Source of the DNA: Deltaproteobacteria bacterium
GTDB taxonomy: Bacteria; Myxococcota; UBA727; VGSZ01
Assembly: GCA_016177705.1 (NCBI GenBank)
Contig: JACOUT010000009.1
Location: 48,057 to 112,056 of the forward strand
DNA length: 64,000 nt
Direction of reading: 5' to 3'
Made by a program: the position numbers and the translations under genes. The notes under the pieces were generated by a model. That model had not been told where the DNA came from and ran no database searches. It saw nothing but the letters and a program-made list of their open reading frames with translations. Shown here in pieces: positions 3,684 through 63,091 of the stretch. The number at the start of each line of letters is the position of its first letter. Position 1 is the stretch's first letter.

Positions 3684-3991
3684 CTACTCGGCGCAGCGCC
3701 CGTCCTCGCACACGCCCGACGGGCACGGGGTGTAGGCGACCGCGCCGTCGACGCACGAGTAGTAGCCCTCGCCCGCACACTCGGCGCCAAAGCGCGCGGC
3801 GTCGCACTCGGCCTCGGGCACGCAGATACGTTGCCGATCAGCGGGCTCGGCCGCGTCGGCGCCGCAGAAGAAGCCTCGCTCACAGTCGTCGTCGTGCTCG
3901 CAGGGCGCGCCGAGCGCGGCGCGCTGTTCGACGCCGCACGCGACCGCGAGCGTGCACAGCGAGACGCACAGCGAAGCGACCACAGCAGCCC

Positions 3992-5996: not shown

Positions 5997-6238
5997 GGTG
6001 GCGGCTCGGTCTCGTCCTTCGTGCCCCAGCTCCTCAGCCAGGCAACCATCTTGTCGTTGTCGACGACGCGCCCAGCGGCGACGTCCGCCCGCGCGCGCGC
6101 GATCTTCGCCTCGGTCTTCTTGTCACTGAGCGTGCCCTTGAGCAGCTCGCCTGCGAGCTTGTCCACGCTCTTGCCGAGATCCTTCGCTAGGGCCTCGAGC
6201 TCCTTGGCGAGCTTGTCGTCGATCGAGATCGTCACCAT
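5987..6238 (-). CDS. type II antitoxin, ribbon-helix-helix (ParD/CopG-like)
   Basis: 83 aa from the internal ATG, MVTISIDDKLAKELEALAKDLGKSVDKLAGELL. RHH pattern. Lies immediately upstream of and overlapping parE. Confidence 0.7.
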   Translation of the reverse strand: MVTISIDDKLAKELEALAKDLGKSVDKLAGELLKGTLSDKKTEAKIARARADVAAGRVVDNDKMVAWLRSWGTKDETEPPPCE

Positions 6239-6620
6239 GATGAGCGAAGGATAGCGCCCCCGTGCAGCGCTGTCGTCGACGACGGTGCCCGCGCCCCTCC
6301 TCCGCAGGAGCACCATCGCCCGGGCTTGGTCACCTGGCGCGACAGAGCCCGCACCGCCGCAAGGTACGCCGTGCGGCGCGCTGCGGAGCGCCGCACACGC
6401 CGTCGGCCCTGCACAGCAATCGCCCACCGGCGCACTGTTCACCGCCGGAGATCCGCGCCTGGCCCGGGGGCGGCGGCCGCAGTGAACGCCGCACGAGCCG
6501 ACCAGCCGGCGAGCGCAACCGCCTGTATTCCCACGGGGGCGGCACCGCTGCTCGCAGCTCAGGTGGCGCTCCCCGCGATCCGATTTGCGCTCGCCCGCCT
6601 TCGGGGGTCTCCTCTCGGTG

Positions 6621-7238
6621 ATGAGCGCGACCGCCCCCCAGGTGCTCACCGCCGCGGCGCCGCACGACGCGCTGCGGGCGCTGTTCGACGCCGCGCGCGC
6701 AGGCGACGCCGCCGCGCTCGAGTCGCTGTGTGTGCAGATGCGCCCGCGCCTGTACCGCAGCGCCTGGGCGGTGCTGCACGACGCCGATGAGGCCGACGAC
6801 GTGGCGCAGGACGCGCTCGTGCGCGCCGTCACGCGTCGCTTCCTCTTCCTCGGCAGAGGCAGCGTCGCTGGTTGGATGACCCGCATCGCGCTCAACCTGG
6901 CGAAGAACCGGCTGCGCGACGGCCGCCGCCGCCGCCAGATCCTGGACGACGCCTCGCCGGAGGAGCGCGCCTCTCGCGGCGCCGCGCCGACGGCGCCAGT
7001 CCGAGCCGACGACGTTGCCGCCACCCTGCAGGCGCGCCGTCGGCTCTCCGCCGCCGTGGCCGCGCTGCCCGAGCGGCAGCGCGAGGTGGTGGAGCTGCAC
7101 GTCTCGGCCGGCCTCGACTGGGGCGACGTCGCCGAGGCGCTCGGCATCAGCGAGGCCAACGCCCGCATGACCTACTCGAACGCCAGGAAGAAGCTCTTGT
7201 CCGCGCTCGGCGCCACCGGCGCATCGGAGGAACCATGA
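6621..7238 (+). CDS. ECF (sigma-24-type) RNA polymerase sigma factor
   Basis: Region 2 (RLYRSAWAVLHDADEADDVAQDALVRA) and region 4 (LPERQREVVELHVSAGLDWGDVAEALGISEANARMTY). The stop overlaps the next ATG (ATGA). Confidence 0.8.
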   Translation: MSATAPQVLTAAAPHDALRALFDAARAGDAAALESLCVQMRPRLYRSAWAVLHDADEADDVAQDALVRAVTRRFLFLGRGSVAGWMTRIALNLAKNRLRDGRRRRQILDDASPEERASRGAAPTAPVRADDVAATLQARRRLSAAVAALPERQREVVELHVSAGLDWGDVAEALGISEANARMTYSNARKKLLSALGATGASEEP

Positions 7239-7606
7239 GCCGCCATGACGACGTGCCCGCCGCGCTGGCGCCGCTGGCCGAACCGCCGCCGCCGCCGCGT
7301 CGCACCGACGCTGCCTTTGCGCGCGCCGTCGCCGACGGCGTCAAGCAGCGTCGCGCGCCCTTCGCGCTCTGGCTCGGCGCGCCTGCGCTGGCGCTCGCTG
7401 CCGCCGGCGTCGCCATCGTGGTCGCGGGCCCAGACGGTGGGCGGGTCGCCGTCGACGCGGGCGTGACCATCGCGCGCGCCGCCGCGGTCGAGGTCGACTG
7501 GGCCGAAGAGAGCGACTTTGCGATCCCGTCGCTGGACGGGTCGACCGATGAGGAGCTGGCGCGGCTCGATCGCGCCCTCGACGAGGCCATCAAGCTGCGC
7601 CGGTGA
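7234..7606 (+). CDS. anti-sigma factor (single-pass membrane protein)
   Basis: 123 aa, translationally coupled to the sigma factor gene. One TM helix (FALWLGAPALALAAAGVAIVVAG). Confidence 0.6.
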
Positions 7607-7642
7607 ACGAGGCAGCGACCAACGAACGACCGAGGACCGACC

Positions 7643-8191
7643 ATGCGACACGCCCACGCCTTCCTGTTGACCACCACCCTGCTCGTCGGCGCGACCGCGG
7701 CGCTGGCCGAGCCGCCGCCCGGTCCGGGCCCGGCCGGTCCCTTCGCCGGCAAGCGCGAGGAGATGCGCGCGCGCGTCGAGCAGAAGATCAAGACCTATCT
7801 CACCGTCGAGCTGGCCTCGCGCCTCGCCCTCGATCAGAAGCGCGCCCTGCAGCTCGGCGACGCCGTGCAGCGCCACATGGAGCGCAAGCACCAGCGCGGC
7901 GAGAAGATGCGCACCGAGGCCGACAAACTGCGCGAGCTGGTCGAGAAGAAGGCGCCGGATGCGGCTGTGAAGTCGCAGCTCGACATGGTGGTCGGCCTGG
8001 CCGGCAAGGACGACGACCTGCACGCCTTCCTCGGCGACACCGGCAAGTTCCTGAACGTCACCGAGCAGGCCAAGCTGGCGCTGTCGATGCCCGAGATCAT
8101 GCGCGACGTGCATCGCCTGGTGCGCGAAGCGAAGCGCGAGTTTCGCGGGCGCGGCCCGGGGCCGGGCCCAGGTCACGACGACGACGAGTGA
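7643..8191 (+). CDS. periplasmic Spy/CpxP-like (LTxxQ-motif family) protein
   Basis: Signal peptide MRHAHAFLLTTTLLVGATAALA, then a helical Lys/Glu-rich body. Third gene of the ECF operon. Confidence 0.5.
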   Translation: MRHAHAFLLTTTLLVGATAALAEPPPGPGPAGPFAGKREEMRARVEQKIKTYLTVELASRLALDQKRALQLGDAVQRHMERKHQRGEKMRTEADKLRELVEKKAPDAAVKSQLDMVVGLAGKDDDLHAFLGDTGKFLNVTEQAKLALSMPEIMRDVHRLVREAKREFRGRGPGPGPGHDDDE

Positions 8192-9206: not shown

Positions 9207-10919
9207 TCACGGCACCGGCGCCGCGCTCGGGCCGCGCCGCGCCACTGCGCTCGCGTCGAGGCTGACGGCGGCGGCCAACTGTCCCGGCGTGAAGGGCTTG
9301 GCCAGGAAGGTCGCCCCCTTCTCGAGCAAGCGCGCGATGGCGCGCGGATCGGGGGAGTAGCCGGAGACCAGCACGACCCGCGGCGCTCGTGGCCTGGCGA
9401 GCAGCTGATCCGCCAGCTCAATGCCGCTCATGCCGTGCAGGTTGACGTCGGTGATGACAATGTCGATGGCATCCAGCGCGGTGGCGAGCAGCGCCTCGGC
9501 GGAGTCGAAGGTGTGGGGCGTCATGTCGGCAGCGCCGACGATCCGCGCCATCAGCGACCGAACGCGCGCATCGTCGTCGACGATGGCCACCGATCGTGGC
9601 CTGTGGTCCTCGTGGGATGTCGGCGGGATGTCGGCCGCGGCTCTCGCCCCTTCGGCTGCGAGCGGTAGCAGGACGGTGAAGGTGCTGCCGCGCCCAGGGG
9701 TGCTGTCGACGTCGATGCGGCCGCCGAGGCTGGCGGTGACGCCGAAGACCGTGGACAGCCCGAGCCCCGTCCCCTTGCCGGGCGCCTTGGTGGTGAAGAA
9801 GGGCTCGAACATGCGCTGCCTCACCTCGTCGGTCATGCCGGCGCCGGTGTCCGCGACGACGAGGCGGCACACCCGGCCAAGTTGCGCGTCGTCGCCGCGC
9901 TCCACGCGCACGCGCAGCTCGCCCTTGCCCGCCATGGCGTCACGCGCGTTGACGGCCAGGTTCATCACGATCTGCTCGAGCTGGGACGCCGACGCGATCA
10001 CGACCAACGGGCCGCCGCTCGTCTCCATCGTCACGCGCACCTGCTTGCCGACCAGCCGCTGCACGATGTCGCCCATGGCCTCGACCACGGCGCACGGGTC
10101 GAGCTCCATGGTGCGGACCACGTCGCGACGGCTGAAGGTCAGCAGCCGGCTCGTGAGCGCGCTGCCCCGCTCGGCGGCCCCGATGATGTCTCGCACGTCC
10201 TTGGCCGCTTCGCCTTGCAGGCCCGCCTCCTCCTCGAGCAGGGAAGCGCAGCCCCGAATCACCGTCAGCAGGTTGTTGAAGTCGTGCGCGACGCTGCCAG
10301 CCAAGAGGCCGCGCGCCTCCATGCGCTGGCTGTGCTCGAGCTTGAGCGCCAGTGCGTCGGCGCGCTCGCGGGCGGCGCGCGCGTCGACGCTGCGCTGCTC
10401 GAGCTCTCCCAGCAGCCGCCGCACGCTCACCGACGTCGCGATCGCCATCGCGCCCCCCAGGGCGCAGAGGAACGCGCCCTCGGCGTACACGTTGATGAGC
10501 GGCTGCACCGGCTCGGACGAGCTGGGTCCGAAGGCGAGCACCGCTTCACCCGCCAGCGCGACCGCGACCACGACGACCACGTGCTTCGGCGGCAGGATCA
10601 TGGGCGACAGCATGACGCCGAGCACGACGTAGAACGGCGCGTTGCCGGGGTTGCCTCGCAGCAGGCCGGCGGCGACGACGCCGGCGGTGCCGAGCAGGGT
10701 GAAGCCATAGCCGGCGGTCAGCACGTGGCCGCGGCGCGCGGCGACGATCAGCGCGCCGACCAGGACCAGGCCGACGACGTTGCCGACCACATCGGTCCAC
10801 TGGCCTGTCACGAGCGCCCAGCCGCCGAAGCCGGCCGCCTGGGCGAGGATGACCCAGCCGGCGCCCTGCGCGGCGCGCTGACGACGAAGCTGCTCGGTCC
10901 GGGCGTAGTCGGTGGGCAC
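9207..10919 (-). CDS. hybrid sensor histidine kinase (TM sensor, HisKA, HATPase_c and a C-terminal receiver domain)
   Basis: 570 aa. H-box HDFNNLLTVIRG. G-box GTGLGLSTVFG. Receiver VAIVDDDARVRSL…ITDVNLHGMSGIEL…AKPF. Confidence 0.9.
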   Translation of the reverse strand: MPTDYARTEQLRRQRAAQGAGWVILAQAAGFGGWALVTGQWTDVVGNVVGLVLVGALIVAARRGHVLTAGYGFTLLGTAGVVAAGLLRGNPGNAPFYVVLGVMLSPMILPPKHVVVVVAVALAGEAVLAFGPSSSEPVQPLINVYAEGAFLCALGGAMAIATSVSVRRLLGELEQRSVDARAARERADALALKLEHSQRMEARGLLAGSVAHDFNNLLTVIRGCASLLEEEAGLQGEAAKDVRDIIGAAERGSALTSRLLTFSRRDVVRTMELDPCAVVEAMGDIVQRLVGKQVRVTMETSGGPLVVIASASQLEQIVMNLAVNARDAMAGKGELRVRVERGDDAQLGRVCRLVVADTGAGMTDEVRQRMFEPFFTTKAPGKGTGLGLSTVFGVTASLGGRIDVDSTPGRGSTFTVLLPLAAEGARAAADIPPTSHEDHRPRSVAIVDDDARVRSLMARIVGAADMTPHTFDSAEALLATALDAIDIVITDVNLHGMSGIELADQLLARPRAPRVVLVSGYSPDPRAIARLLEKGATFLAKPFTPGQLAAAVSLDASAVARRGPSAAPVP

Positions 10920-16444: not shown

Positions 16445-16533
16445 GCTTCGTCCGCGAAGTCGATTGTGGGAAAGAGCGGTTGCCAGCGCTCGCCGGCTCC
16501 TTCTAAGGTCCGCGCGCACCTTCCGGGGATACC

Positions 16534-17436
16534 ATGGCAGATCAGCCCTCTTTCATTGGCGAGCGCGCCGCACGCCAACTCTCCAACACCACCAAGACGC
16601 CGCCGCAGTGGCGCGGCGCGAGCCCCCGCTGGCTGACGCAGATGCTGCCGTGGGTGCCGGTGGAGGCGGGCGTCTACCGCGTCAACCAGGCGCTCGACGA
16701 CAAGTTCGAGCTGCGCTGTACGCCCGACCCCGCGGCGTCGTTGCCGGTCGGCCTCTCCGACTATGAGGCGCAGCCGCGCGAGTACGTGCTCTCCTCGGTG
16801 ACGACGACCATCGCCGTGCACACGCGCGTCTCCGACCTGTTCCGCAGCCCGATGGATCAGACGAAAGAGCAGCTCACCCTCGCCATCGACAAGTTGAAGG
16901 AGAAGCAAGAGGACGAGCTGATCAACAACGCGAGCTACGGCCTGATCAACAACGCCGACCCCGAGATGCGCGTCAAGACGCGCAAGGGCCCGCCCACGCC
17001 CGACGACATGGACGAGCTGATCGCGACGGTGTGGAAGGAGCCCTCCTTCTTCCTCGCGCACCCGAAGGCCATCGCTGCCTTCGGCCGCGAGTGCACCCGT
17101 CGCGGCGTGCCGCCGCCCACGGCGACCATGTTCGGCGCGCCCTTCCTCACCTGGCGCGGGCTGCCGCTCGTGCCCTGCGACAAGCTCCGCATCAAGGACA
17201 ACAAGACAAACGTGCTGTTGCTGCGCACCGGCGAGCGCAAGCGCGGCGTGGTCGGCCTGTTCCAGCCGGGCTTGCCCGGCGAAGTGAGCCCGAGCTTGAG
17301 CGTGCGCATGATGGGCATCAACGCGCAGGGCGCGACGCAGTACCTGCTGTCGCTCTACTGCTCGACGGCGGTGTTGGTGCACGACGCGCTCGGTGTGCTC
17401 GAGGGCGTGACGGTGAACCACTATTACGACTACTGA
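16534..17436 (+). CDS. Family 2A encapsulin shell protein (HK97-fold nanocompartment)
   Basis: 300 aa, the Family 2 size class, with no cNMP-binding insertion. It lies 23 nt upstream of a SufS-like cysteine desulfurase that carries a long disordered N-terminal extension and is followed by a rhodanese gene. This is the canonical Family 2A operon arrangement. Confidence 0.55.
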   Translation: MADQPSFIGERAARQLSNTTKTPPQWRGASPRWLTQMLPWVPVEAGVYRVNQALDDKFELRCTPDPAASLPVGLSDYEAQPREYVLSSVTTTIAVHTRVSDLFRSPMDQTKEQLTLAIDKLKEKQEDELINNASYGLINNADPEMRVKTRKGPPTPDDMDELIATVWKEPSFFLAHPKAIAAFGRECTRRGVPPPTATMFGAPFLTWRGLPLVPCDKLRIKDNKTNVLLLRTGERKRGVVGLFQPGLPGEVSPSLSVRMMGINAQGATQYLLSLYCSTAVLVHDALGVLEGVTVNHYYDY

Positions 17437-17459
17437 GGGGCACGAGTACGCCTGAGCCC

Positions 17460-19103
17460 ATGAACCCGACGGATCCGCTCTCACCGGGCGAGCTGGCGCT
17501 CGTCTCCCATGCGCCGACCGACGTCGAGCGCGGCGCCACGCCGCCGCTCGCGTCGCCCGGCGTGGGCATGGCGGCGACGCGCGTGCCGAGCGGGCCGAGC
17601 CTGCCCGACGCGCATCCTGCGAGCATGCACCTGGCGGCGGCCAACAGCGGGCTCGCAAACCCCTTCTTGGCGCCGCTCGACTTCTCCTCGGTGATGGCGT
17701 CGCCGAACGCGCCTGCCTCAAGCATGCCGGCGAGCTTCTCGGTGCCGCTGTTGCGCGACGACGTCCCCGCGGCGCCGGCGTCGCCGCCCGCACCTGCCGC
17801 CGCGCCGACCCCCGCTCCGCCGGTGCTCGACCTCGGGACGCTCGGGTTTGCCCCCGTGCCGGCGCTCGACGCGCCGGCATCGAGCGGATCGTTCGACGCG
17901 CACGCGCTCAAGCGCGAGTTTCCCATCCTGCAGGAGCGCGTGCACGGCAAGCCGCTCGTCTGGCTCGACAACGCGGCCACCACGCAGAAGCCGCGCATGG
18001 TCATCGAGCGGGTGAAGACCTTCTACGAGCGCGAGAACTCCAACATCCATCGCGCGGCGCACGCGCTGGCTGCTCGCGCCACCGACGCCTACGAGAGTGC
18101 GCGCGAGACGGTACGGCGCTTCCTGAACGCCTCGTCGGTGCGCGACGTGGTGTTCGTGCGCGGCGCCACCGAGGGCATCAACCTGGTGGCGCAGGCGTGG
18201 GGCAGGCGCAACGTCAAGGAGGGCGACGAGATCGTCGTCACCCACCTCGAGCACCACGCCAACATCGTGCCGTGGCAGATGCTGTGCAAAGAGACCGGCG
18301 CCATCCTGCGCGTCGCGCCCGTCGACGACACCGGGCAGGTGCTGCTCGACGACTACCAGCGGCTCTTGAGCGAGCGCACCAAGCTGGTGGCGCTGCCGCA
18401 GGTGTCGAACGCGCTCGGCACGGTGACGCCGGCCGCGCGCATGATCGAGATGGCGCATCGCCACGGTGCGCGCGTGCTGCTCGACGGCGCGCAGTCGGTG
18501 TCGCACCTGCGCGTCGACGTGCAGCAGCTCGGCTGTGACTTCTTCGTCTTCTCGGGGCACAAGGTGTTCGCGCCTACCGGCATCGGTGCGGTGGTGGCGC
18601 CGGCCGCGCTGCTCGACGAGACGCCGCCCTGGCAGGGCGGCGGCAACATGATCCAGGACGTCACCTTCGAGCGCACCGTGTACCAGCCGGCACCGGCGCG
18701 CTTCGAGGCCGGCACCGGCAACATCGCCGATGCGGTCGGGCTCGGCGCCGCGCTCGACTGGCTGTCGCGCGTGGGGCTCGAGAACGTCGAGCGGCACGAG
18801 CACGAGCTGCTGCGCTACGGCACCGAGAAGCTGCTCTCGGTGCCGGGCCTGCGCATCATCGGCACGGCGCCGGAGAAGGCGGGCGTGCTCTCCTTCGTCA
18901 TCGACGGGCACGACACGCAGACCATCGCCAAGGCGCTCGACCAGGAGGGCATCGCGGTGCGCGGCGGGCATCACTGCGCGCAGCCCATCCTGCGGCGCTT
19001 CGGACTCGAGAGCACGGTGCGTGCCTCGCTGGCGCCGTACAACACGCTCGAGGATCTCGACGCGCTGACGGCCGCTTTGTGTAGGATGGTGGGCGTCCGC
19101 TGA
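17460..19103 (+). CDS. SufS/CsdA-like cysteine desulfurase with a ~150-aa disordered N-terminal extension (putative encapsulin cargo)
   Basis: The class-V aminotransferase core starts near ALKREFPILQERVHGKPLVWLDNAATTQKP and includes HHANIVPWQ and FSGHKVFAPTGIGA. The N-terminus is Pro/Ala/Ser-rich low complexity. Confidence 0.85.
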   Translation: MNPTDPLSPGELALVSHAPTDVERGATPPLASPGVGMAATRVPSGPSLPDAHPASMHLAAANSGLANPFLAPLDFSSVMASPNAPASSMPASFSVPLLRDDVPAAPASPPAPAAAPTPAPPVLDLGTLGFAPVPALDAPASSGSFDAHALKREFPILQERVHGKPLVWLDNAATTQKPRMVIERVKTFYERENSNIHRAAHALAARATDAYESARETVRRFLNASSVRDVVFVRGATEGINLVAQAWGRRNVKEGDEIVVTHLEHHANIVPWQMLCKETGAILRVAPVDDTGQVLLDDYQRLLSERTKLVALPQVSNALGTVTPAARMIEMAHRHGARVLLDGAQSVSHLRVDVQQLGCDFFVFSGHKVFAPTGIGAVVAPAALLDETPPWQGGGNMIQDVTFERTVYQPAPARFEAGTGNIADAVGLGAALDWLSRVGLENVERHEHELLRYGTEKLLSVPGLRIIGTAPEKAGVLSFVIDGHDTQTIAKALDQEGIAVRGGHHCAQPILRRFGLESTVRASLAPYNTLEDLDALTAALCRMVGVR

Positions 19104-19114
19104 CGGCCCCACCC

Positions 19115-20038
19115 ATGAAGCTCCTCTCGCCCGTCGATCTGCAAGCGCTGCTCACCACCGACGTCGACATCGTCGACGTGCGTGAGCCCGCCGAGTGGCT
19201 GACCGGGCACGTGCCGGGCGCGCGCCTGGTGCCGCTCGCGCAGCTGCGCGCCGATCCCAGAGGTGCTTTGCCGCGCGACAACGTGGTGTTCATCTGCGCC
19301 AAGGGCAAGCGCAGCGAGACGGCCGCCGAGGTGGCGATGCAGATCGGGCGCGCGCAGGTCTACAGCTTGTCGGGCGGCACTGACGCCTGGCGCGCCGCCG
19401 GCCTGCCCATCGTCATGCCCGAGGCGCAGCGCCTCGCCCGAGGGGAGGGCGAGCCCGTGGCGCCGGTCGCCGAGCCCGAGCTGGACGCGCTGGTCGGCGC
19501 CAACCTGCACGCGGAGCGCAGCGCGCGCGGCCTGTCGCTCGACGACCTGGCGCGCGACTCGGGCGTCAGCCGCACGCTGCTCGGCCAGATCGAGCTCGGC
19601 CGCACCGTGCCGTCCATCGGCGTCATCTGGAAGATCGCGCAGGCGCTCGGCGTGCCCTTCTCGACGCTGTTGGCGAGCGCGGCGCCGCGCGTCGGCACCA
19701 CCATCACCGAGCGCGAGCAGGCAAAGAAGCTGACCTCGGCCGACGGCCGCTTCTCGTCGCGTGCGCTCTACCCGCTCGGCGACGCGCACGCCGCCGAGTT
19801 CTACGAGCTGTGGATGGCGCCGCACAGCCGCGAGGACGCCGAGCCGCACCGCCCGGGCACGCGCGAGAACCTGATCGTGGTCTCGGGCAGGCTCGAGTTG
19901 AAGGTGGGCAACGACAGCTTCCAGCTCGGCAAGGGCGCGGCGGTCAACTTCTCCGCGGATCAACCGCACAGCTACATCAACCGCTCCGGCGAGGAGTGCT
20001 GGATGTACCTGGTGATGAACTACGCCGGCCGCAAGTAG
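19115..20038 (+). CDS. rhodanese-domain, HTH_XRE and cupin fusion protein (putative sulfur-responsive regulator)
   Basis: N-terminal rhodanese (VDVREPAEWLTGHVPGARLVP…ICAKGKRS, active-site Cys). Middle XRE HTH (LSLDDLARDSGVSRTLLGQIELGRTVPSIGVIWKIAQALGV). C-terminal cupin. Confidence 0.7.
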   Translation: MKLLSPVDLQALLTTDVDIVDVREPAEWLTGHVPGARLVPLAQLRADPRGALPRDNVVFICAKGKRSETAAEVAMQIGRAQVYSLSGGTDAWRAAGLPIVMPEAQRLARGEGEPVAPVAEPELDALVGANLHAERSARGLSLDDLARDSGVSRTLLGQIELGRTVPSIGVIWKIAQALGVPFSTLLASAAPRVGTTITEREQAKKLTSADGRFSSRALYPLGDAHAAEFYELWMAPHSREDAEPHRPGTRENLIVVSGRLELKVGNDSFQLGKGAAVNFSADQPHSYINRSGEECWMYLVMNYAGRK

Positions 20039-20051
20039 CTCGCTGCACCTT

Positions 20052-20765
20052 TCAGCGCGCGCGCACGAAGAACGAGGCGAAGTACTGCTCGGCGTCCTTC
20101 GGCACGATGCGCAGCACGTCCGGTGTGCGCGACAGCGGCTCGCCGGCGTCGGTGGCGGCGCGCCACAGGCGAAACCAGACGCTCCGGCTCGACAGCAGCA
20201 CGCCCGCGAAGAAGCCGAACCAGCCGCCGGGCAGCGGGAGCAGCGAGCCGATGCCGACGTACGGGCGCGCGCAGCTCGGGCACCACGGGCGCGTGTTGAT
20301 CAGCCAGTTGGTCTTGGTGAGGTCGAGCGTCGCGTCGCAATTGACGCACAGGACCTGGAAGCGCACCGGCTCGCGCTCGACGTGCTTCGACAGGTCGAGC
20401 TCGAGGCCCGAACCATCGGGCGCCGCCTCGCCGACGCGGATCTCCTCGACGACGTCTTTGGCAAGGCGCGCCAGCTCGCCGCCATCGAGCCACGAGCAGC
20501 CGCACGAAGGACACAGGTCGACGAGCACGCCGCGCGCGCGCACCTCCGCGATGCGCGCGTCGCAGCTCGGGCAGGGGCCACGGGGGACACCGGCGCGCGC
20601 CAATTCCAGCAAGACCTCGGCGCGGATGCCGAGGATATCGACGAACAGCCGCTGCGAGGTCGCGGTGTCGAGCAAGCGCCCGTGACAGCGCGGGCACACG
20701 TCCTCGGCGAGCGCGCCCGAGCCCCTTCGTAGGTCGGTGCCGTCTCGGGGGCAGGTGTGCGCCAT
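20052..20765 (-). CDS. zinc-ribbon (zf-TFIIB-like) domain protein with a C-terminal membrane segment
   Basis: CPRCHG…, CPSCDARI…, CPSCGCSWLDGGEL… and CVNC…CPSC motifs. C-terminal hydrophobic stretch WFGFFAGVLLSS. Confidence 0.6.
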   Translation of the reverse strand: MAHTCPRDGTDLRRGSGALAEDVCPRCHGRLLDTATSQRLFVDILGIRAEVLLELARAGVPRGPCPSCDARIAEVRARGVLVDLCPSCGCSWLDGGELARLAKDVVEEIRVGEAAPDGSGLELDLSKHVEREPVRFQVLCVNCDATLDLTKTNWLINTRPWCPSCARPYVGIGSLLPLPGGWFGFFAGVLLSSRSVWFRLWRAATDAGEPLSRTPDVLRIVPKDAEQYFASFFVRAR

Positions 20766-24636: not shown

Positions 24637-27600
24637 TCAGGCCGGCTTGTCGCGCAGCTCGAGCAGCAACTGGCGGCCGCGCGCCCACAGGTCTGCCCGG
24701 GTCAGCGTGCCGGCCGCCACCTGCTGCAAGAGCGCCCGCTGCGCGCGGTAGTCGCGGTTGACCACGCCGGCGCGGCTCTGCAACTGCCGCCACGCCTTGC
24801 GACGCTCGACGCAGAACAGCACCATCTGGCGCGAGAGCGCGTAGTAGGCGAGCTCGCCCTCCTCCTCGGTGACCAGGTAGGCGCCGAAGTCGGGCACGTA
24901 GGCGCGGTGCTTTTCGTCGAGGAAGCGGCGCCACACCAGGTCGTCCATGGTGAGCGCGCACAGCAGGTCGTCGAGGTGCGTGAGCTTCTTGGCCTGCTCC
25001 TCCTTGAGCGGCTTCACGTGGCGGCGGAAGCGCGCCTCGGTGGTGGCCCAGTGCGCCACCGTGTACCAGTGCTTGCCGCCGTCCTTGGCGCGACGGATCT
25101 CGCGCCAGTCGCGGTCGACCTCGAGGTTGCCGCCGAGGTCGAGCACCTCGGCGCTGGTCTCGCCCTTCTGCGGGTCGTAGACGAACTGCGGTACCCCGCG
25201 CGAGTCGCGCGCGCGCCGCGCCTGCGTGGAGGCCATGTCGTCGCCCACGCCGTGCTCGGGCTGGCAGGTGGTGAAGGACTGGAAGAACGCAGTGCCGCGA
25301 TACTCGAGCGCGCGCAGCAGCGACTCGTAGAGCCGCTGCTCATCGGCCATCGAGAGCTGCGCGACAAAGGGCGAGCCGTGCCCAACGGTGAACGCCTCGG
25401 CCACCGATTTCTTCTCGGTCAGCTTGCCCTGGGTCGCCGCGCCCATCTGGTTCATGTCGAAGCCACCGGTCAGCACCGACGAGTCCGAGTTCTGGCCGCC
25501 GGTATTCGAATAGACCTGCGTGTCGAGCATCAGCAGCTTCACGTTGGGCCGGTTTTGCAGGACGACCTTCGAGACGTTCTGGAAGCCGATGTCGCCCATG
25601 GCGCCGTCGCCGCCGATGCACCACACGCGCGGTAGCTCGTGCACCTCGCGGTCGGTCATGCGCGTGTCGTCGAGGTGGGTCAGCTCGAAGTAGTCGTCCT
25701 TGCTGAGGGGCAGCTCGGGCTTGTCCAGCAGGGCGTCGGCCAGGCGCTCCGGGATCACCGAGCGGCGCGCGTGGTCGAGGATGAAGCTCTCGCCCAGCAA
25801 CCAGGAGATGGTTGCGCCGTCCTGGAACAGCGAGTTCATCCAAGGGTAGGGGTGCGGCGTGGCGGGTGAGGTCGAGCCGTACACCGTGTTGCAGCCGGTG
25901 TGCGCGCCCATCGCCATCACTGCCATGCCGTTGGCGAGGCGCCCGTCGACGGCCTGCAGGTAGCGATGATTGAAGGCGTCCTGGCGGAGCACGGTGACGA
26001 GCGCGTCGACCAGCTCCCGGTCGCTCTTCTTGCTCGTGGCGGCCACCCGCTTGCCGGTGTCGGCGTCGCTCTCGCCGCCGAGGCCGAGGATCAGGTGCGC
26101 GACGGCACGCGCATAGAGCGCGTACGCCTCCGGGTCCTTTGTCGCGAGCGCGCCGAGCAACTCGGCGCCGCGCTCCTTCAGCACGGCGGCGCGCTGCTCG
26201 AGGCGTGCGGCGCGCGCGTGATAGATGGGGCGCATGTAGGCCTCGGTGATCGACGCCACCGTGTGCAGCACGCTCTTTTCACCGCAGCCCGCGCAGGCGC
26301 CGTCGCCCGACACGAGCGCGCCGTAGTTCTTCTGCACCATCAGGTGGTTGCGCAGCGTGGCCGGGCGCGACTTCTCGGGCGCGTTGTCGTCGTACTTGCC
26401 CAAGAACTTCGTGGGTGTCTGCGGCAGCAGCTCGAAGAAGGCCTGCGCGGACAAGCCGCGCGCGTTCAGCTCTTCTGAGTCGCTGCTCATCTTGAGCGCC
26501 TGTTTGTCGCCGCACTCGACCACGCACTCGCCGCAGCCCTTGCACAGGTCGTTGACGACGATGGAGAAGACCCCGCCCGTTCCCGGCTTGGCCTTCTCGA
26601 GCAGGCTGAACACCGGCTTCACGGCCTGGAAGGCCACCGGCACCGCCTCGAGCGCGGCCTGCAGCTCCGTGCGCGAGGCATGCGACACCTCTGCCAGACC
26701 CTCGACGAGCGGGCGCACCAGGTCGGCGAACTTGTCCTTCTTGCCGGCGCTTGCGATCTCGCCCATGCGCGCGCGCGCCGCCTGCTCGAGGCCGGGTAGC
26801 GCGCCGACGAGCTTCTTGCGATCGCCGGCGTCCGACACGTAGTGACGCACCGCGGTGGCCAGCACCGTCGACAGCTCCTGCGAGGTGTTCAGCAGCGCCG
26901 TGTCGGGGCACGCGGCGATGCATGCCATGCACTGCGTGCAGTTCTCAGCGATGAACACCGGCGTGGCGCGGCGGGCGACGTACTTGGAGGTGGTGGCCCC
27001 GGTGGCGGACGCGATCACACCCACCGAGGCGAGCGCCGAGGCCGGCTGGTCGTAGCCGAGCCCCGCGCGGAACTCGCCGTCGAAGTAGGAGCGCGCGGTG
27101 AGGTTGGGGCGCGCGGGCTGCTCCTGCGGGGGCGGCACGCGGCCGAGCGTGGCCACGTCGTCGAGGGTCTCGACCACGGGCAGCAGCGTCTTGCCACGCA
27201 TGGCCGAGCGATCCTCGGCATGCAACTCGCCGTAGGGCACCGGGCGCACCATGGTGAAGCCGTCGTCCATCACCGCCATGTTGGACGCGACCACCGCGTC
27301 TCCTAGTCGGCCGAATTTCTTCACGTACTGCTCGCGCACCAGCTCGCGGAACTTCTCCTTGGAGATATTGTAGTCGCCGAGGAACGACGACACCGCGAAG
27401 AAGGCACCGAGGAAGGCGTTGCCCTGCATCCGCAACTGCAAGTCGGGACGGTCGGTGGCGCGGCGCGCGATCTCGAAGCCGGGCAGGATGAACAGGCGGA
27501 TGTCCTTCTCGACCACCTCGCGGCGCAGCGCGCGCGGGATGCGCATCCAGGCCTTCTCCGGCGTGTCGTCGCTCTCCCAGACGAAGGCGCCGCCATGCTG

Positions 27601-29325
27601 CACGCCCTGCAGCGGATTACTGTGCGTGAAGGCCTTCGGGTCACAGCACAACACCACGTCGACGTGCCGCAGGTCGCAGTTGACCCGGATGCGCTCGGGG
27701 GCCACCACCAGGAAGTAAGCGGTGGGCGCGCCCTTTTTCTCGGAGCCGTATTTCGGGTTGGCGCTGACGTGCAGCACCTCTGCCGGCAGTCCGTTGGCGT
27801 CGACCAGCCCTCGCTCACGGGCGACGGACTCGCCGAGGTTGCCGACGATCATGCCGAGGTTCTTGCCGGTGGTGATCATCCCCCAGCCGCCGATCGAGTG
27901 CAGACGCACCGCGATGGCCTTCTCGGGCAAGAGCGACGGCGCCGACGCCGACACCACAGCGTAGGGGTGCGGCACGCCGAGCACGAAGTAGCGCTCGCCG
28001 TCCTTGGCGCTCTTGCCGTCGGTGCGCGCGATCTTGCCGGTGGCATACTGCCAGGCGCCCAGCACGTGCTCGGGCCGGAAGTCGCGCGAGCCCAAGCCGT
28101 AGCTGCCGCGGAACAGCGTGGGCTGATCGTCGGGCGCGATGGGCGGCACGGCACCGGGCGCCGCGGCCGCGCCCTCGCGCTGTGCGCGCCACGACTCGAG
28201 CGCCTTGCCGAGCGTGGTGCGAACGTCGCGCGCGAGCGCGTTGTCGCCCGACATCGCGTCGTCGACGCGCTCGAGCACGATGACGTTCTTCTTGCCGGCG
28301 AGCGCGCGGGCCAGCGCCGCCTCGGGGAAGGGCCGCAGCACGTTCAGGTGGATGGAGCCGACGCGCTCGCCGTGGGTCTTCTCGATCCAGTCGACCGCGG
28401 CTTCGATGTTCTCGGCGGCGGAGCCGAGCGTGAGGAACACGGTGTCTGCGCCCTCGCACTTGTGCTCGGTGACGAGGCCGTACTTCCTGCCGGTCAGCTC
28501 GGCGAAGCGCTCGAAGGACTCCTCGAGAAAGCCCAGGATCGGCTCCGAGAAGTTGTTCCGGCGCGCGATGACGCCTTGCATGTAGTGCTCTTGGTTCTGC
28601 ACCGGCCCGATCACCGCAGGGTTCTTGAGGTCGATGACCTCGGGGACGCGGCGGCGCGTTGGGCCAAAGAGCTCGCGTTGCGCGGGGGTGGGGCAGGGGA
28701 TGACGTCGTCGGCTGCACCGAGGAACTCACGGATCAGCTCGGCCTCGTGCATGAAGAAGGTGCGCTCGAGGTGGCTCGTCAGGAAGCCGTCCTGCACGTT
28801 GATGCCCGGGTTGAGCGCCAGCTCGGTTACGCGGCGCAGGATGAGCGCCTGGTCGGCCGCCTGCTGCGCGTCCTTGCCGACGAGGATGATCCAGCCGGTG
28901 TCGAGCGCGGCGTAGAAGTCGTCGTGGCCGCAGTGCACGTTGAGCGCGTGCTTGGTGAGCGCGCGCGCAGCGCACTGCACCACCATGGTCGAGAGCTTGC
29001 CGGGCGCGTGGTAGTACTGCTCGAGGCCGTAGACGAGGCCTTGCCCCGAGGTGAAGTTGACGACGCGCCTGCCCGTGATCGACGCCGCGATGGCGCCGCC
29101 CTGCGCCGCGTGCTCGCCCTCGGCCTCGATGGCGAGCGTGCGGTTGCCGAAGACGTTGAGCTTGCCTTCGGCGAAGGCCTGTTGAAACAGCTCGCCCATC
29201 TCGGTGGACGGCGTGATCGGGTAGAACACGCCCGCGTCGGCCACGCGCGCTTCGGTCATGGAGGCGATCAGCTGGTTGCCGTTGGCGACGACGCGGATGC
29301 CGGGATAGCGCGGGGACGTGGACAT
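24637..29325 (-). CDS. pyruvate:ferredoxin (flavodoxin) oxidoreductase-like fused 2-oxoacid:acceptor oxidoreductase, 1562 aa
   Basis: PFOR N-terminus (GNQLIASMTEARVADAGVFYPITPSTEMGE). Two 4Fe-4S ferredoxin motifs (CTQCMACIAACP, CKGCGECVVECG). TPP-binding GGDGAMGDIGFQN. About 350 aa longer than canonical NifJ. Confidence 0.85.
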   Translation of the reverse strand: MSTSPRYPGIRVVANGNQLIASMTEARVADAGVFYPITPSTEMGELFQQAFAEGKLNVFGNRTLAIEAEGEHAAQGGAIAASITGRRVVNFTSGQGLVYGLEQYYHAPGKLSTMVVQCAARALTKHALNVHCGHDDFYAALDTGWIILVGKDAQQAADQALILRRVTELALNPGINVQDGFLTSHLERTFFMHEAELIREFLGAADDVIPCPTPAQRELFGPTRRRVPEVIDLKNPAVIGPVQNQEHYMQGVIARRNNFSEPILGFLEESFERFAELTGRKYGLVTEHKCEGADTVFLTLGSAAENIEAAVDWIEKTHGERVGSIHLNVLRPFPEAALARALAGKKNVIVLERVDDAMSGDNALARDVRTTLGKALESWRAQREGAAAAPGAVPPIAPDDQPTLFRGSYGLGSRDFRPEHVLGAWQYATGKIARTDGKSAKDGERYFVLGVPHPYAVVSASAPSLLPEKAIAVRLHSIGGWGMITTGKNLGMIVGNLGESVARERGLVDANGLPAEVLHVSANPKYGSEKKGAPTAYFLVVAPERIRVNCDLRHVDVVLCCDPKAFTHSNPLQGVQHGGAFVWESDDTPEKAWMRIPRALRREVVEKDIRLFILPGFEIARRATDRPDLQLRMQGNAFLGAFFAVSSFLGDYNISKEKFRELVREQYVKKFGRLGDAVVASNMAVMDDGFTMVRPVPYGELHAEDRSAMRGKTLLPVVETLDDVATLGRVPPPQEQPARPNLTARSYFDGEFRAGLGYDQPASALASVGVIASATGATTSKYVARRATPVFIAENCTQCMACIAACPDTALLNTSQELSTVLATAVRHYVSDAGDRKKLVGALPGLEQAARARMGEIASAGKKDKFADLVRPLVEGLAEVSHASRTELQAALEAVPVAFQAVKPVFSLLEKAKPGTGGVFSIVVNDLCKGCGECVVECGDKQALKMSSDSEELNARGLSAQAFFELLPQTPTKFLGKYDDNAPEKSRPATLRNHLMVQKNYGALVSGDGACAGCGEKSVLHTVASITEAYMRPIYHARAARLEQRAAVLKERGAELLGALATKDPEAYALYARAVAHLILGLGGESDADTGKRVAATSKKSDRELVDALVTVLRQDAFNHRYLQAVDGRLANGMAVMAMGAHTGCNTVYGSTSPATPHPYPWMNSLFQDGATISWLLGESFILDHARRSVIPERLADALLDKPELPLSKDDYFELTHLDDTRMTDREVHELPRVWCIGGDGAMGDIGFQNVSKVVLQNRPNVKLLMLDTQVYSNTGGQNSDSSVLTGGFDMNQMGAATQGKLTEKKSVAEAFTVGHGSPFVAQLSMADEQRLYESLLRALEYRGTAFFQSFTTCQPEHGVGDDMASTQARRARDSRGVPQFVYDPQKGETSAEVLDLGGNLEVDRDWREIRRAKDGGKHWYTVAHWATTEARFRRHVKPLKEEQAKKLTHLDDLLCALTMDDLVWRRFLDEKHRAYVPDFGAYLVTEEEGELAYYALSRQMVLFCVERRKAWRQLQSRAGVVNRDYRAQRALLQQVAAGTLTRADLWARGRQLLLELRDKPA

Positions 29326-29386: not shown

Positions 29387-31768
29387 CTATTCCACGTGGA
29401 TGTCGACGGGCGCGCTGCGCTTGCCGCCGGCGCGCGCCTCGATACGGTGCGCGCCGCGCTCGAGCGGCCAATGCGCTTCATAGGGGAACGCGACCGCGGC
29501 GAGCGCCACTCCGTCGACGTACCAAGTGAGCAACTCGCTCGGCGGATCCACCGCCGCGCTCAGTCTTAACGACTGGGTGGCGCGCTGGTAGCCCGGCTCG
29601 ACCAGGAAGCCCTCGCCGGTGCGCGGGTAGGTCACCGTCACCTGGTCGGCCACCGCGCCGTCGGCCGGGCACAAGGGCGAGTAACCCGAGGGCGGCGCCG
29701 CGCCGGCCTCGGCCTGCCACTTGGCATAGGTCGGCGGCAGCACCGCGAAGGTGCGCTCCACCACGTGGCGCGGCGGGCAGCCCGGGCCGGCGCGCAGCCC
29801 GTTGCGCGCGTCGACGGCGATGCGGCGATGCCAGGGGCACGCCTCGGTGGGCACGTCGCCGCTGCGCACGCGCACCGTGCGCCGGTGGGGGCAGTGCGGC
29901 TCGGGCAGGCGGCCGCTGACGGCGCACACCTCGACGTCGACCACACCGGCAGGTGGCTCGCGCCAGCGCGGTGGCCGCGAGGGGGGATGCAGCACGCGCA
30001 GCACCGAGGCGAGCAGCGGGCCGGCGCCGGCGGCGCCCGCGAGCCGATCCATGGGCCGGCCAGCCACGTCGCCGAACCACACCACCACGGTATGTTCGGG
30101 CGTGTAGCCGACCGCCCAACTGTCGCGGAAGCTCGTCGAGGTGCCGGTCTTGATGGCCACGGGGAAGCCGACCAACAACGCCGTGCGCTGCCCGAACGCC
30201 CGCATGCGCAGGTGCTCGTCCTTGAGCACGTGGGTCACCAGGTGCGCCACGTCCTCGTCGATGACGCGCGGGCCGTCGTCGCCGTGGTCGTCGGCGAGCG
30301 CCTGGGGACGACAAGCGCGGCCGCCGCGCGCCAACGCGGCGTAGGCGCCGGCCAGCTCGAGCGGCGTCACCTCGCCGTTGCCGAGCGTGAGGCCGAGGCC
30401 GTAGTGCCCCGCGTCCTTGTCGAGCGAGTCGATGCCGAGCGTGCGCAGCAGGGCCAGCAGGTCGTCGACGCCCACCTGCTGCGCCGCACGGATGGCCGGC
30501 ACGTTGAGCGAGCGGCCGAGCGCCTCGCCCATCAGCACCGGCCCGTCGAAGCGCTTGTCGTAGTTCTTGGGGGAAAACAGCGTGCCGTCTGCCTCTCCGT
30601 ACCGGGTCTCGACGTCGGCGACCACCGACGCGGGCGACAAGCCCTTTGCGAAGGCGAGCGCGTAGGTGAAGGGCTTGAGCGTGCTGCCCGGCTGCCGCCG
30701 CGCCAGCGCGCCATTGACCGAGCCGCCGTCGTCGTCCCAGTAGTCGAGCGAGCCGAGCAGCGCGCGCACCGTGCAGCGCTCGTTGTCGAGCACCACCACG
30801 GCCGCGTTCCTGGCACCTTGCGCGGCGATGCGCCGCGCGTGCTCGCGCGCCAGCGCCTCGACCTTGTCTTGCAGCACCGGATCGAGCGTCGTCGTCACCT
30901 CGGCCGGTGCGCTGCCGTCCTTCGCCACCTGCGCCAGCACCAGGTCGGTGAAGTGCAGCGCGCGCGGCGCCTCGCGGTCGGCGTCGAAGCGCAGCGGCTC
31001 GGCGAGCGCCGCCTCGCGCGTCGCGGCGTCGATGGCGCCGGTCTCGACCATGCGATCGAGCACCCGTCGCTGCCGGGCGCGCGCGGCGTCGGGCGCCTTG
31101 AGCGGGTTCTTCTGGGACGGCGCCTGAGGCAGCGCGGCCAAGAGCGCCGCCTGCGCCAGGCTCAGATTGACTGCAGGAGTGCCGAAGTATCGAAGCGACG
31201 CAGCCTCGACGCCGAGCGCGCCCGCGCCGTACGGGGCGCGGTTGAGGTAGTGCGTGAGAATGGCGTGCTTGTCGTGCGCGCGCTCGATGCGTCGCGCCGT
31301 CACCATCTCGGCGAGCTTGCCGGCGAGGGAGCGCGGCCGTGGCTCCACCAGCCCGGCGAGCTGCATGGTCAGGGTCGAGGCGCCCGACACCACGCGCCCC
31401 GCGCGCAGGTTCGACAGCGCCGCGCGCACCATCGCGATCCAGTCGACGCCGCCGTGCGAGAAGAAGCGCTCGTCCTCGATGGCGACGGTCGCGTCCACGA
31501 CGGCGGGCGCCACCTGGTCGAGCGACACGGCGCGCGCGCGCGCGCCGTCGGCGCCCACGGCCTCGCGCAGCAGCGAGCCGTCGGCGGCGAGCACCCGCGT
31601 CGACGAGGGCGGCCGCGACAGGTCGGGCGCGTCGCCCAGGCGCGCCGCCAGCTCCACGCCGCCCACCAGCACCAGCGCGGCGAGCGGCGGCGCGACGGCG
31701 CACAGCAGGGCCGCGACGCCCAGCCGACGTCGCCACGCGGCCCGGCGGGTGGGCGGCGAGCGCCTCAC
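29387..31768 (-). CDS. pbpC: penicillin-binding protein 1C (glycosyltransferase plus transpeptidase), PbpC-like
   Basis: GTG start overlapping the upstream stop (GTGA). TM helix. GT51 motif IEDERFFSHGGVD. Transpeptidase STLKPF and KTGTS. The Arg-rich 5' extension of the 1226-aa track ORF is not coding. Confidence 0.85.
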   Translation of the reverse strand: MRRSPPTRRAAWRRRLGVAALLCAVAPPLAALVLVGGVELAARLGDAPDLSRPPSSTRVLAADGSLLREAVGADGARARAVSLDQVAPAVVDATVAIEDERFFSHGGVDWIAMVRAALSNLRAGRVVSGASTLTMQLAGLVEPRPRSLAGKLAEMVTARRIERAHDKHAILTHYLNRAPYGAGALGVEAASLRYFGTPAVNLSLAQAALLAALPQAPSQKNPLKAPDAARARQRRVLDRMVETGAIDAATREAALAEPLRFDADREAPRALHFTDLVLAQVAKDGSAPAEVTTTLDPVLQDKVEALAREHARRIAAQGARNAAVVVLDNERCTVRALLGSLDYWDDDGGSVNGALARRQPGSTLKPFTYALAFAKGLSPASVVADVETRYGEADGTLFSPKNYDKRFDGPVLMGEALGRSLNVPAIRAAQQVGVDDLLALLRTLGIDSLDKDAGHYGLGLTLGNGEVTPLELAGAYAALARGGRACRPQALADDHGDDGPRVIDEDVAHLVTHVLKDEHLRMRAFGQRTALLVGFPVAIKTGTSTSFRDSWAVGYTPEHTVVVWFGDVAGRPMDRLAGAAGAGPLLASVLRVLHPPSRPPRWREPPAGVVDVEVCAVSGRLPEPHCPHRRTVRVRSGDVPTEACPWHRRIAVDARNGLRAGPGCPPRHVVERTFAVLPPTYAKWQAEAGAAPPSGYSPLCPADGAVADQVTVTYPRTGEGFLVEPGYQRATQSLRLSAAVDPPSELLTWYVDGVALAAVAFPYEAHWPLERGAHRIEARAGGKRSAPVDIHVE

Positions 31769-37467: not shown

Positions 37468-37715
37468 GAAGACCTCCGACGCGGCACAGCGTCGACGAGA
37501 CCGGTGGGCGCGCGCAAGGCGCATATGCACGGCCGTTGCACGGCCCGTGCACAGCCCGAGCGCAGCCATTGCGCAGCGGGAAGCGCCTCGCGCCGGTGGC
37601 GCACGTCGTCGCTGTGGCCGCCGGGACACGACCGCTGATGCCGCACGGACACCTCGGGCGTTGATGGCACCGACGGTTGCCGCGCCGCGCCAGCGGTGCC
37701 AGCGTCAGCGCCCGC

Positions 37716-62992: not shown

Positions 62993-63091
62993 TCGAGGGC
63001 GGTCCTTCTCGCCACGCAGTCGCGCGGCGCGAGGGAGCCACGATAGACCAGGGGGCTCGCTCGTTTCACGTCGGGCGTCGAGGGCTGCGGT

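Follow-up and report, generated by a model that had tools for sequence, protein, structure and literature searches.

What is the three-gene cassette that joins an encapsulin-like shell gene to a cysteine desulfurase and a rhodanese-containing protein in a Myxococcota genome, and what might its third gene do? The cassette lies in a 64,000-nucleotide stretch of contig JACOUT010000009.1 (positions 48,057 to 112,056 of the forward strand, assembly GCA_016177705.1), here called the window, whose numbering is used throughout. We propose, with a probability of roughly 0.85, that it is a Family 2A desulfurase-encapsulin operon of a Polyangiales-like Myxococcota metagenome-assembled genome (MAG), in which a fusion of a rhodanese with a regulator module resembling Escherichia coli SutR would serve as a sulfane-sulfur-responsive feedback regulator. 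The three genes lie on one strand:

16534..17436, plus strand: open reading frame (ORF) of 300 amino acids (aa), predicted Family 2A encapsulin shell, cyclic nucleotide (cNMP)-binding insertion absent
17460..19103, plus strand: desulfurase ORF of 547 aa, ATG start at 17460
19115..20038, plus strand: rhodanese-SutR-like fusion gene, 307 aa

The gaps between them measure 23 nt (17437..17459) and 11 nt (19104..19114). The deposited NCBI proteins are the same three sequences (MBI1946847.1 for the shell, MBI1946848.1 for the desulfurase and P0001 for the third gene), so that the gene starts agree with the deposited annotation, and the frames and spacings given in an earlier reading of the letters without database searches (the sequence-only reading) hold as they were. 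A longer mechanical ORF of the desulfurase reaches back to GTG 17031, a start that is disfavoured by its 400-nt overlap with the shell gene. The G+C content is about 70% across the region with no compositional break, and at the third codon position it is 0.84-0.96 in the ORFs scored.

The shell protein matched a single Pfam family, PF19307 “Type 2A encapsulin shell protein SrpI-like” (E = 5e-98, 327.6 bits against a cut-off of 22.8), and scored 466.3 bits with the NCBIfam equivalog model of Family 2A encapsulin shells, NF041162 (cut-off 380). A PDB search returned the shell of Acinetobacter baumannii 118362 (8T6R; residues 8-300, E = 1e-119, 58.5% identity counted from the alignment) and SrpI of Synechococcus elongatus (6X8M; residues 9-300, E = 8e-114, 57.7% identity), followed by the mycobacterial Mmp1 shells (9KSL and 8WOL, E = 1e-106; 8WON, E = 3e-102). 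The Family 2B structures 9BJE, 9BIX and 9BHU (470-477 aa) matched residues 68-296 only, in two stretches, the encap_f2b model matched over its positions 218-449 only, and no cNMP-binding domain (PF00027) was detected by the Pfam scan, which together place the protein in subfamily 2A. It is, by homology, a member of the SrpI / A. baumannii / M. smegmatis (Mycobacterium smegmatis) shell family. Its fold would be of the HK97 type, a different fold being very unlikely at 58% full-length identity to 8T6R and 6X8M, both solved by cryo-electron microscopy (cryo-EM); chance is excluded by the E-values of the SrpI-like match and of the Aminotran_5 match of the desulfurase (E = 1e-142). The NCBI record of the shell reads “hypothetical protein HYS27_14220” although NF041162 is passed, and some sources label members of its cluster “Phage capsid-like protein”. 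Such labels would suit a leftover HK97 capsid gene of a defective prophage beside an ordinary SufS for Fe-S assembly. This explanation is, however, effectively refuted, since shell and desulfurase both score above encapsulin-specific equivalog cut-offs, since the scan of neighbouring genes turned up neither terminase, portal, protease or tail genes nor any of SufBCDE/U, and since the shell-desulfurase pair is kept across about 70 species in many phyla.

The second protein scored 816.2 bits with NF041166, the model of the Family 2A encapsulin cargo cysteine desulfurase (cut-off 800), and 543 bits with the sufS model TIGR01979 (cut-off 475). In the PDB it matched 8KG1 best (E = 3.5e-175) and SufS/CsdB of E. 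coli at about 1e-125. Motif location placed the Lys that binds pyridoxal 5'-phosphate at residue 368 in SGHK (codon 18561-18563) and the catalytic Cys at residue 506 in HHC (codon 18975-18977). In the PDB and profile matches the SufS homology always begins at residue 132-149 or thereabouts, which divides the gene as follows:

17460..17894, plus strand: putative cargo-loading domain, desulfurase residues 1-145, Pro/Ala/Ser-rich
17652..17669, plus strand: LANPFL motif, residues 65-70, counterpart of the published “LARLANEFFS”
17895..19103, plus strand: SufS-type (class II) catalytic domain, matched by NF041166, TIGR01979 and 8KG1

By these scores the desulfurase is the predicted dedicated SufS-type cargo of the shell. 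The sequence-only reading had named a Family 2A shell with a cysteine-desulfurase cargo carrying a long Pro/Ala/Ser-rich N-terminal extension, and the profile scores, the identity of about 58% to cryo-EM shells and the late onset of the SufS homology bear it out on each count.

Pro and Ala each account for 20% of the N-terminal 145 residues and Ser for 12%, and there are just three Lys/Arg and five aromatic residues; this stretch had no homologue among solved structures, and its composition points to disorder. The published cargo-loading domains are rich in Pro, Gly and Ser (PMC10836720). The same early reading had called this domain unusually Pro-rich, a view that did not survive comparison with the N-terminal domains extracted from about 75 related operons: Pro makes up 15-23% of the domain in relatives from Myxococcota and Acidobacteriota, the window falling within the usual range of its lineage, and 5-12% of that in Firmicutes and many Gammaproteobacteria. 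Nor is the length out of the ordinary beside the 155-aa disordered region of M. smegmatis, which was shown to direct loading (PMC11659603); for Myxococcota it is short, comparably short domains being found only in L001 (147 aa) and L023 (154 aa). Three segments are kept in the loading domains of Myxococcota relatives, namely SPGELALV, ASPGVGMAATRVPSGPSLPD and LANPFL. Alignment of 15 Myxococcota sequences showed conserved islands, an N-terminal MxTxDP...SPGELxLV and SPGV..AATRVPSGPSLPD right before the LAN motif, separated by variable Pro-rich linkers, a pattern that fits the several short shell-binding motifs on flexible spacers described for this family (PMC10836720). A regular-expression search for [LIVM][AS]Nx[FLYW][FLYWI] matched the window and roughly half of the extracted domains, across several phyla. 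The two motifs published for the SrpI cargo are LARLANEFFS and AASPYYFLDG (PMC8049743); the first corresponds to LANPFL, and the second is not recognisable in the window, where only a loose VPLL(R)DD / VPALDA segment is left. In two of the related operons (L051 and L052) the desulfurase N-terminal domain carries PYYFLGE, of the AASPYYFLDG type, twice, at residues 121 and 258, which suggests an internal duplication of the loading domain.

Comparison with the characterised systems shows how far the core is shared. The A. baumannii operon (8T6R; PMC10836720) likewise has an operon-encoded rhodanese and a SufS-type desulfurase cargo, whose disordered N-terminal loading domain is Pro/Gly/Ser-rich. 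Its gene order is rhodanese, serine O-acetyltransferase, shell and desulfurase, whereas that of the window is shell, desulfurase and rhodanese-regulator fusion; its loading domain has about 225 aa against 145 aa here, and the scan of window ORFs revealed no acetyltransferase. More generally, a scan of the larger ORFs of the window found no serine acetyltransferase and no other sulfur-assimilation genes. The S. elongatus SrpI shell with its CyD cargo (6X8M; PMC8049743) also relies on a disordered N-terminal region for loading, but its host phylum and operon partners differ. In the M. smegmatis Mmp1/Enc-CD system (8WOL, 8WON; PMC11659603) several short motifs are required for loading, the motif sequences differ from those of the window, and no regulator fusion is reported. 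Since shell and cargo pass curated Family 2A models and the shell is about 58% identical to solved ones, the core is an ordinary member of a known, experimentally characterised family and not novel. At least 1,462 desulfurase-encapsulin operons have been catalogued (PMC10836720), and the type “shell + desulfurase + rhodanese” is already described (PMC10836720, PMC8346489). As a finding, the core adds one more Myxococcota example and conceptually changes nothing; its practical use lies in the annotation of the “hypothetical protein” shell. The only unusual part of the operon is the third gene.

The protein encoded by this gene, labelled “helix-turn-helix domain-containing protein” by NCBI, has three Pfam matches: Rhodanese PF00581 at residues 7-94 (E = 4e-16), HTH_3 at 133-184 (E = 7.6e-13) and Cupin_2 at 240-300 (E = 2e-10). 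They make up two parts:

19133..19396, plus strand: rhodanese domain, residues 7-94, with the predicted catalytic Cys61 (codon 19295-19297) in the loop CAKGKRS
19481..20023, plus strand: SutR-like module, residues 123-303, comprising an XRE helix-turn-helix (133-184) and a cupin (240-300), with Cys295 (codon 19997-19999)

The first part resembles the single-domain sulfurtransferases YgaP, GlpE and PspE and retains the loop C61-A-K-G-K-R-S, so that it is a rhodanese domain with its catalytic Cys in a six-residue active-site loop and with predicted sulfurtransferase activity. The second aligned in BLASTP with residues 4-175 of the 178 residues of E. coli SutR (31% identity, E = 1e-28), which has the same HTH_3 plus Cupin_2 layout. 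SutR (YdcN) is described, in the account of Yamamoto et al. 2015 cited in PMC8464067, as an XRE-cupin regulator of sulfur utilisation. SutR differs from the fusion in lacking a rhodanese domain and any encapsulin link, and it has Val at the position of Cys295. The sequence-only reading had spoken of a rhodanese-fusion regulator; the joining of a rhodanese to a DNA-binding module stands on the Pfam matches, and the name regulator is plausible through homology to SutR. In the searchable literature we found no mention of a rhodanese fused to a transcription factor, or of any regulator of encapsulin operons.

An AlphaFold 2 (AF2) model of the fusion built from 43 homologues had a mean predicted local distance difference test score (pLDDT) of 91.5 and a weak flexible linker at residues 101-120. 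Its top Foldseek match was the Vibrio cholerae HTH_3 regulator 1Y9Q (E = 7e-19, template modelling score 0.76 on the target), which was also the top match by sequence, and HppE-type Fe(II) cupins ranked after it at low identity. The latter raise the question whether the protein could be an enzyme, a rhodanese joined to an HppE-like oxygenase (helix-turn-helix-like domain plus Fe(II) cupin) that processes compartment sulfur in the manner of persulfide dioxygenase-rhodanese fusions. Such fusions exist, and one of them, BpPRF, matched the rhodanese domain; the Fe(II) enzymes HppE, HEPD and MPnS share the helical-plus-cupin layout, and a 2-His-1-Glu-like set is invariant in the fusions. Nevertheless we regard an enzyme as very improbable, since the helix-turn-helix region is recognised by HTH_3, since residues 123-303 align with a demonstrated DNA-binding regulator, and since the HppE matches reach only 16-18% identity with a root-mean-square deviation above 11 A.

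How closely the fusion is tied to the encapsulin operon was followed from both ends. Shell-based sampling collected 80 species. Among 22 informative Myxococcota operons, meaning those with enough DNA present beyond the desulfurase, the gene that follows encodes the fusion in ten (L001-L003, L008, L010, L011, L013, L015, L025 and L033), a rhodanese of about 105 aa on its own in seven (L017-L020, L022, L023 and L026) and neither in five. Of the ten, L010 is a locus of Labilithrix luteola DSM 27648 and L013 one of Nannocystis punicea. The shells accompanying fusions are 74-93% identical to the window shell and those accompanying stand-alone rhodaneses 64-71%, which suggests one fusion event in one Myxococcota clade. 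Regulator-based sampling gave 13 independent contexts, 12 of which have a Family 2A desulfurase upstream, either directly (L081-L084, L161-L164 and L170-L172) or with one gene between (L085); in these 12 the shell is also upstream wherever the contig extends far enough, and the flanking genes vary. The intervening gene of L085 (3836-4906) encodes 356 aa with a lipoprotein-like N-terminus, so the cassette tolerates insertions. When metagenomes were scanned with the regulator, most matches were unrelated rhodaneses of a single domain. Outside Myxococcota the operon “rhodanese” lies upstream of the shell, and in three operons it is a three-part protein of 483-545 aa with a ThiS/MoaD-like domain, a ThiF/MoeB-like adenylyltransferase and a rhodanese (L054 4510-5961, L075 5243-6880 and L079 5439-6920), which points to thiocarboxylate chemistry rather than simple acceptance of sulfur.

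The pattern of conserved residues in the fusion is the starting point for a mechanism. Only two cysteines are conserved in 120 fusion homologues, Cys61 (119 of the 119 covering it) and Cys295 (all 120). Five stand-alone paralogues from the sampled loci have Ser, Leu, Ala, Ala and Ala in place of the latter. In a wider comparison of the 150 top-ranked cluster representatives (HMMER, 1.84 billion proteins), stand-alone proteins carry Ala in 84 cases and Thr, Leu, Val or Ser in 35, these five residues together covering about 90% of the stand-alone relatives; 15 of those representatives have Cys, at least four of these being truncated fusions, and all representatives with a rhodanese domain have Cys. 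Two long candidates for further “fusions”, P0127 and P0216, were set aside as they have no rhodanese domain. The association of Cys295 with the rhodanese is, in these alignments, strong and not exclusive.

The homologues of the core supply the physiological frame: they have been reported to assemble as T=1 particles, to load the desulfurase by its N-terminal domain and raise its activity by encapsulation, to store elemental sulfur and to be induced on sulfur starvation (PMC8049743, PMC10836720, PMC11659603). In A. baumannii the stored sulfur was seen as electron-dense puncta. By analogy, 60 shell subunits would assemble into a T=1 particle of about 24 nm, to whose lumen the disordered 145-residue N-terminus would tether the desulfurase through several short motifs. 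The encapsulated enzyme would convert L-cysteine to L-alanine, the released sulfur building up as elemental sulfur or polysulfide. The fusion, standing in for the stand-alone rhodanese of sister operons, would take up at Cys61 sulfane sulfur (persulfide, polysulfide or thiosulfate) made by or drawn from the compartment and hand the sulfur state to its regulator module, possibly via the clade-specific Cys295 in the cupin; altered DNA binding would then feed back on transcription of the operon. We infer from this that the protein may be a sulfane-sulfur-responsive autoregulator. In its most specific form, the proposal is a sulfane-sulfur-sensing transcription factor of an undescribed type, in which a persulfide on Cys61 would be relayed to Cys295 to give a di- or polysulfide bridge; we put this forward tentatively, as a possibility that we would not yet call likely.

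CstR, SqrR and BigR use two conserved cysteines to report on persulfide or polysulfide and to regulate genes for sulfur handling, with rhodaneses affecting the signal. The likeness of the fusion to these proteins (PMC9995734, PMC5823870) consists of the proposed two-cysteine logic only and not of family membership. Their folds are CsoR-like or ArsR-type, whereas that of the fusion is XRE-cupin, and Pfam and NCBIfam showed no CsoR-like or ArsR-type domain in it. Furthermore, unlike in those regulators, one of the two cysteines would here be the catalytic Cys of a covalently attached sulfurtransferase.

The cupin may instead sense something else. In the same core operon, it could bind a small molecule or metal (such as cysteine, O-acetylserine, sulfite or metal-bound sulfide) at His245/Glu251/His285, perhaps with Cys295, as ordinary XRE-cupin regulators do, the rhodanese being only the sulfur acceptor of the operon, fused through gene neighbourhood. 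His245, Glu251, His285, Tyr287 and Asn289 are invariant in the fusions, the His/Glu/His set is the commonest pattern in the stand-alone relatives too (90 of 150), and among the closest structural matches are Fe(II) cupins of the 2-His-1-Glu type (HppE) and variants of TM1459 that bind metal. Moreover, SutR-like genes with neither rhodanese nor Cys295 adjoin encapsulin operons, directly upstream on the same strand in L042 and divergent from a shell-desulfurase-rhodanese operon in L088, from which it follows that the sensing function would be older than the fusion. A ligand- or metal-binding cupin leaves unexplained, however, both the fixation of Cys295 (120 of 120 fusions against fewer than 10% of stand-alone relatives) and the intact rhodanese catalytic loop in every fusion, and we consider it possible but doubtful. 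A further stand-alone SutR-like gene, encoding a second HTH-cupin protein with Ala at the Cys295 position, directly follows the fusion in L163 (6156-6761); other stand-alone relatives stand in unrelated contexts (L087, L092 and L168).

In the 89-nt gap before the shell gene two candidate regulatory elements can be named:

16480..16509, plus strand: candidate promoter, TTGCCA (16480-16485), an 18-nt spacer and TAAGGT (16504-16509)
16508..16519, plus strand: GC-rich near-palindrome GTCCGCGCGCAC, overlapping the candidate -10 element

A strict consensus scan found no sigma-70 promoter. Both TTGCCA and TAAGGT are retained in L001 and L170, two close relatives, and the second of them in L172 as well, with a diverging spacer; they could be the -35 and -10 hexamers. 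In L008, L015, L025 and L163 a TAnGGT-like element stands 29-36 nt ahead of the start codon, and the TAnGGT+GC element occurred in seven of 19 fusion loci, one of eight stand-alone-rhodanese loci and none of five loci without rhodanese, counts that are confounded by shared ancestry. The near-palindrome is a speculative and weak operator candidate: relatives L001, L170 and L172 carry the perfect 12-bp palindrome GTGCGCGCGCAC, from which the window copy differs by one mismatch, and footprinting with these three and L171 brought out nothing beyond the two candidate hexamers and this near-palindrome, the upstream region of L171 being wholly different. The fusion-bearing operon of L164 has two tandem copies of a near-perfect palindrome, TTTGAGCCGTGCCAACGGCTCAAA, shortly before its shell gene (2160-2255); this palindrome is a candidate lineage-specific operator and was not found in the window. 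A consensus scan gave no terminator at any gene boundary of the three-gene operon, and one terminator-like hairpin inside the desulfurase gene was not above chance expectation.

Several observations weigh against a sulfane-sulfur-responsive feedback regulator, or against parts of the scheme. When dyads were enumerated over 180 nt ahead of the shell gene in 17 loci that carry the fusion, no dyad or half-site proved to be shared, and the window showed no perfect inverted repeat of at least 6 nt upstream of its shell gene. As no shared operator, consensus sigma-70 promoter or boundary terminator was found, autoregulation rests on gene order and SutR homology. About 7-8% of the stand-alone relatives also carry Cys at position 295, so this residue is not confined to fusions. 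Because the fusions form one clade, the association of Cys295 with the rhodanese is a single evolutionary observation, and the co-occurrence may reflect one evolutionary event only. Located on the last cupin strand beside the invariant His/Glu/His, Cys295 may be a residue of a metal or ligand pocket and not a relay partner. The arrangement of the domains in the fusion model is uncertain (predicted template modelling score, pTM, 0.63), and an AF2 prediction of the shell from the single sequence without alignment reached a pLDDT of only 34.5. Finally, one of the 13 regulator contexts, L169, is an exception, having the regulator with only a 40-aa desulfurase remnant and no shell. On this contig (GCA_964580865.1, CAZONM010000041.1, 1-4921) the regulator is 87% identical to that of the window, the remnant is the desulfurase C-terminus (3868-3987), and the place of the shell gene and of the remaining cargo gene is taken by four ORFs on the minus strand (693, 207, 151 and >934 aa) that had no Pfam match; a deletion, an insertion or a mis-assembly could account for the arrangement.

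Some neighbouring genes were recorded in passing. Convergent on the regulator gene, and 13 nt from its stop codon, lies a gene for a 237-aa TFIIB-type zinc-ribbon protein (20052-20765, minus strand); it has the same position in L169 and L172, another lies near the cassette in L161, and the proximity may reflect local synteny or a functional link. The other large genes of the window encode, all on the minus strand, a hybrid histidine kinase (9207-10919), a 1562-aa pyruvate:ferredoxin oxidoreductase (24637-29325), a 1954-aa bacterial alpha-2-macroglobulin (31765-37629) and an MMPL transporter (60728-63961). Among the relatives, genes for Sulf_transp (PF04143, YeeE/YedE-like), DUF6691 and DUF2325 run divergent from the cassette in L162 (673-1952), a further case, in this one relative, of a sulfur-related neighbour. 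In the Lentisphaerae MAG of L054, tandem Family 2A shell genes, 55% and 56% identical to the window shell, lie upstream of one desulfurase (6029-7939). The literature discusses operons with two shells for Family 2B.

Two matters are open in published work on these compartments, the remobilisation of the stored sulfur and the sensing of sulfur status by the operon, and the operon rhodanese is the favoured candidate for both. The rhodanese-SutR fusion of one clade, together with the related regulators that adjoin operons, offers a concrete and testable link between compartment, sulfur carrier and transcription, and is a lead worth an experiment. If the relay from Cys61 to Cys295 is true, a storage nanocompartment would receive direct transcriptional feedback from its own product, and the fusion would supply what studies of Family 2A encapsulins are still missing, the regulator and a likely remobilisation partner.

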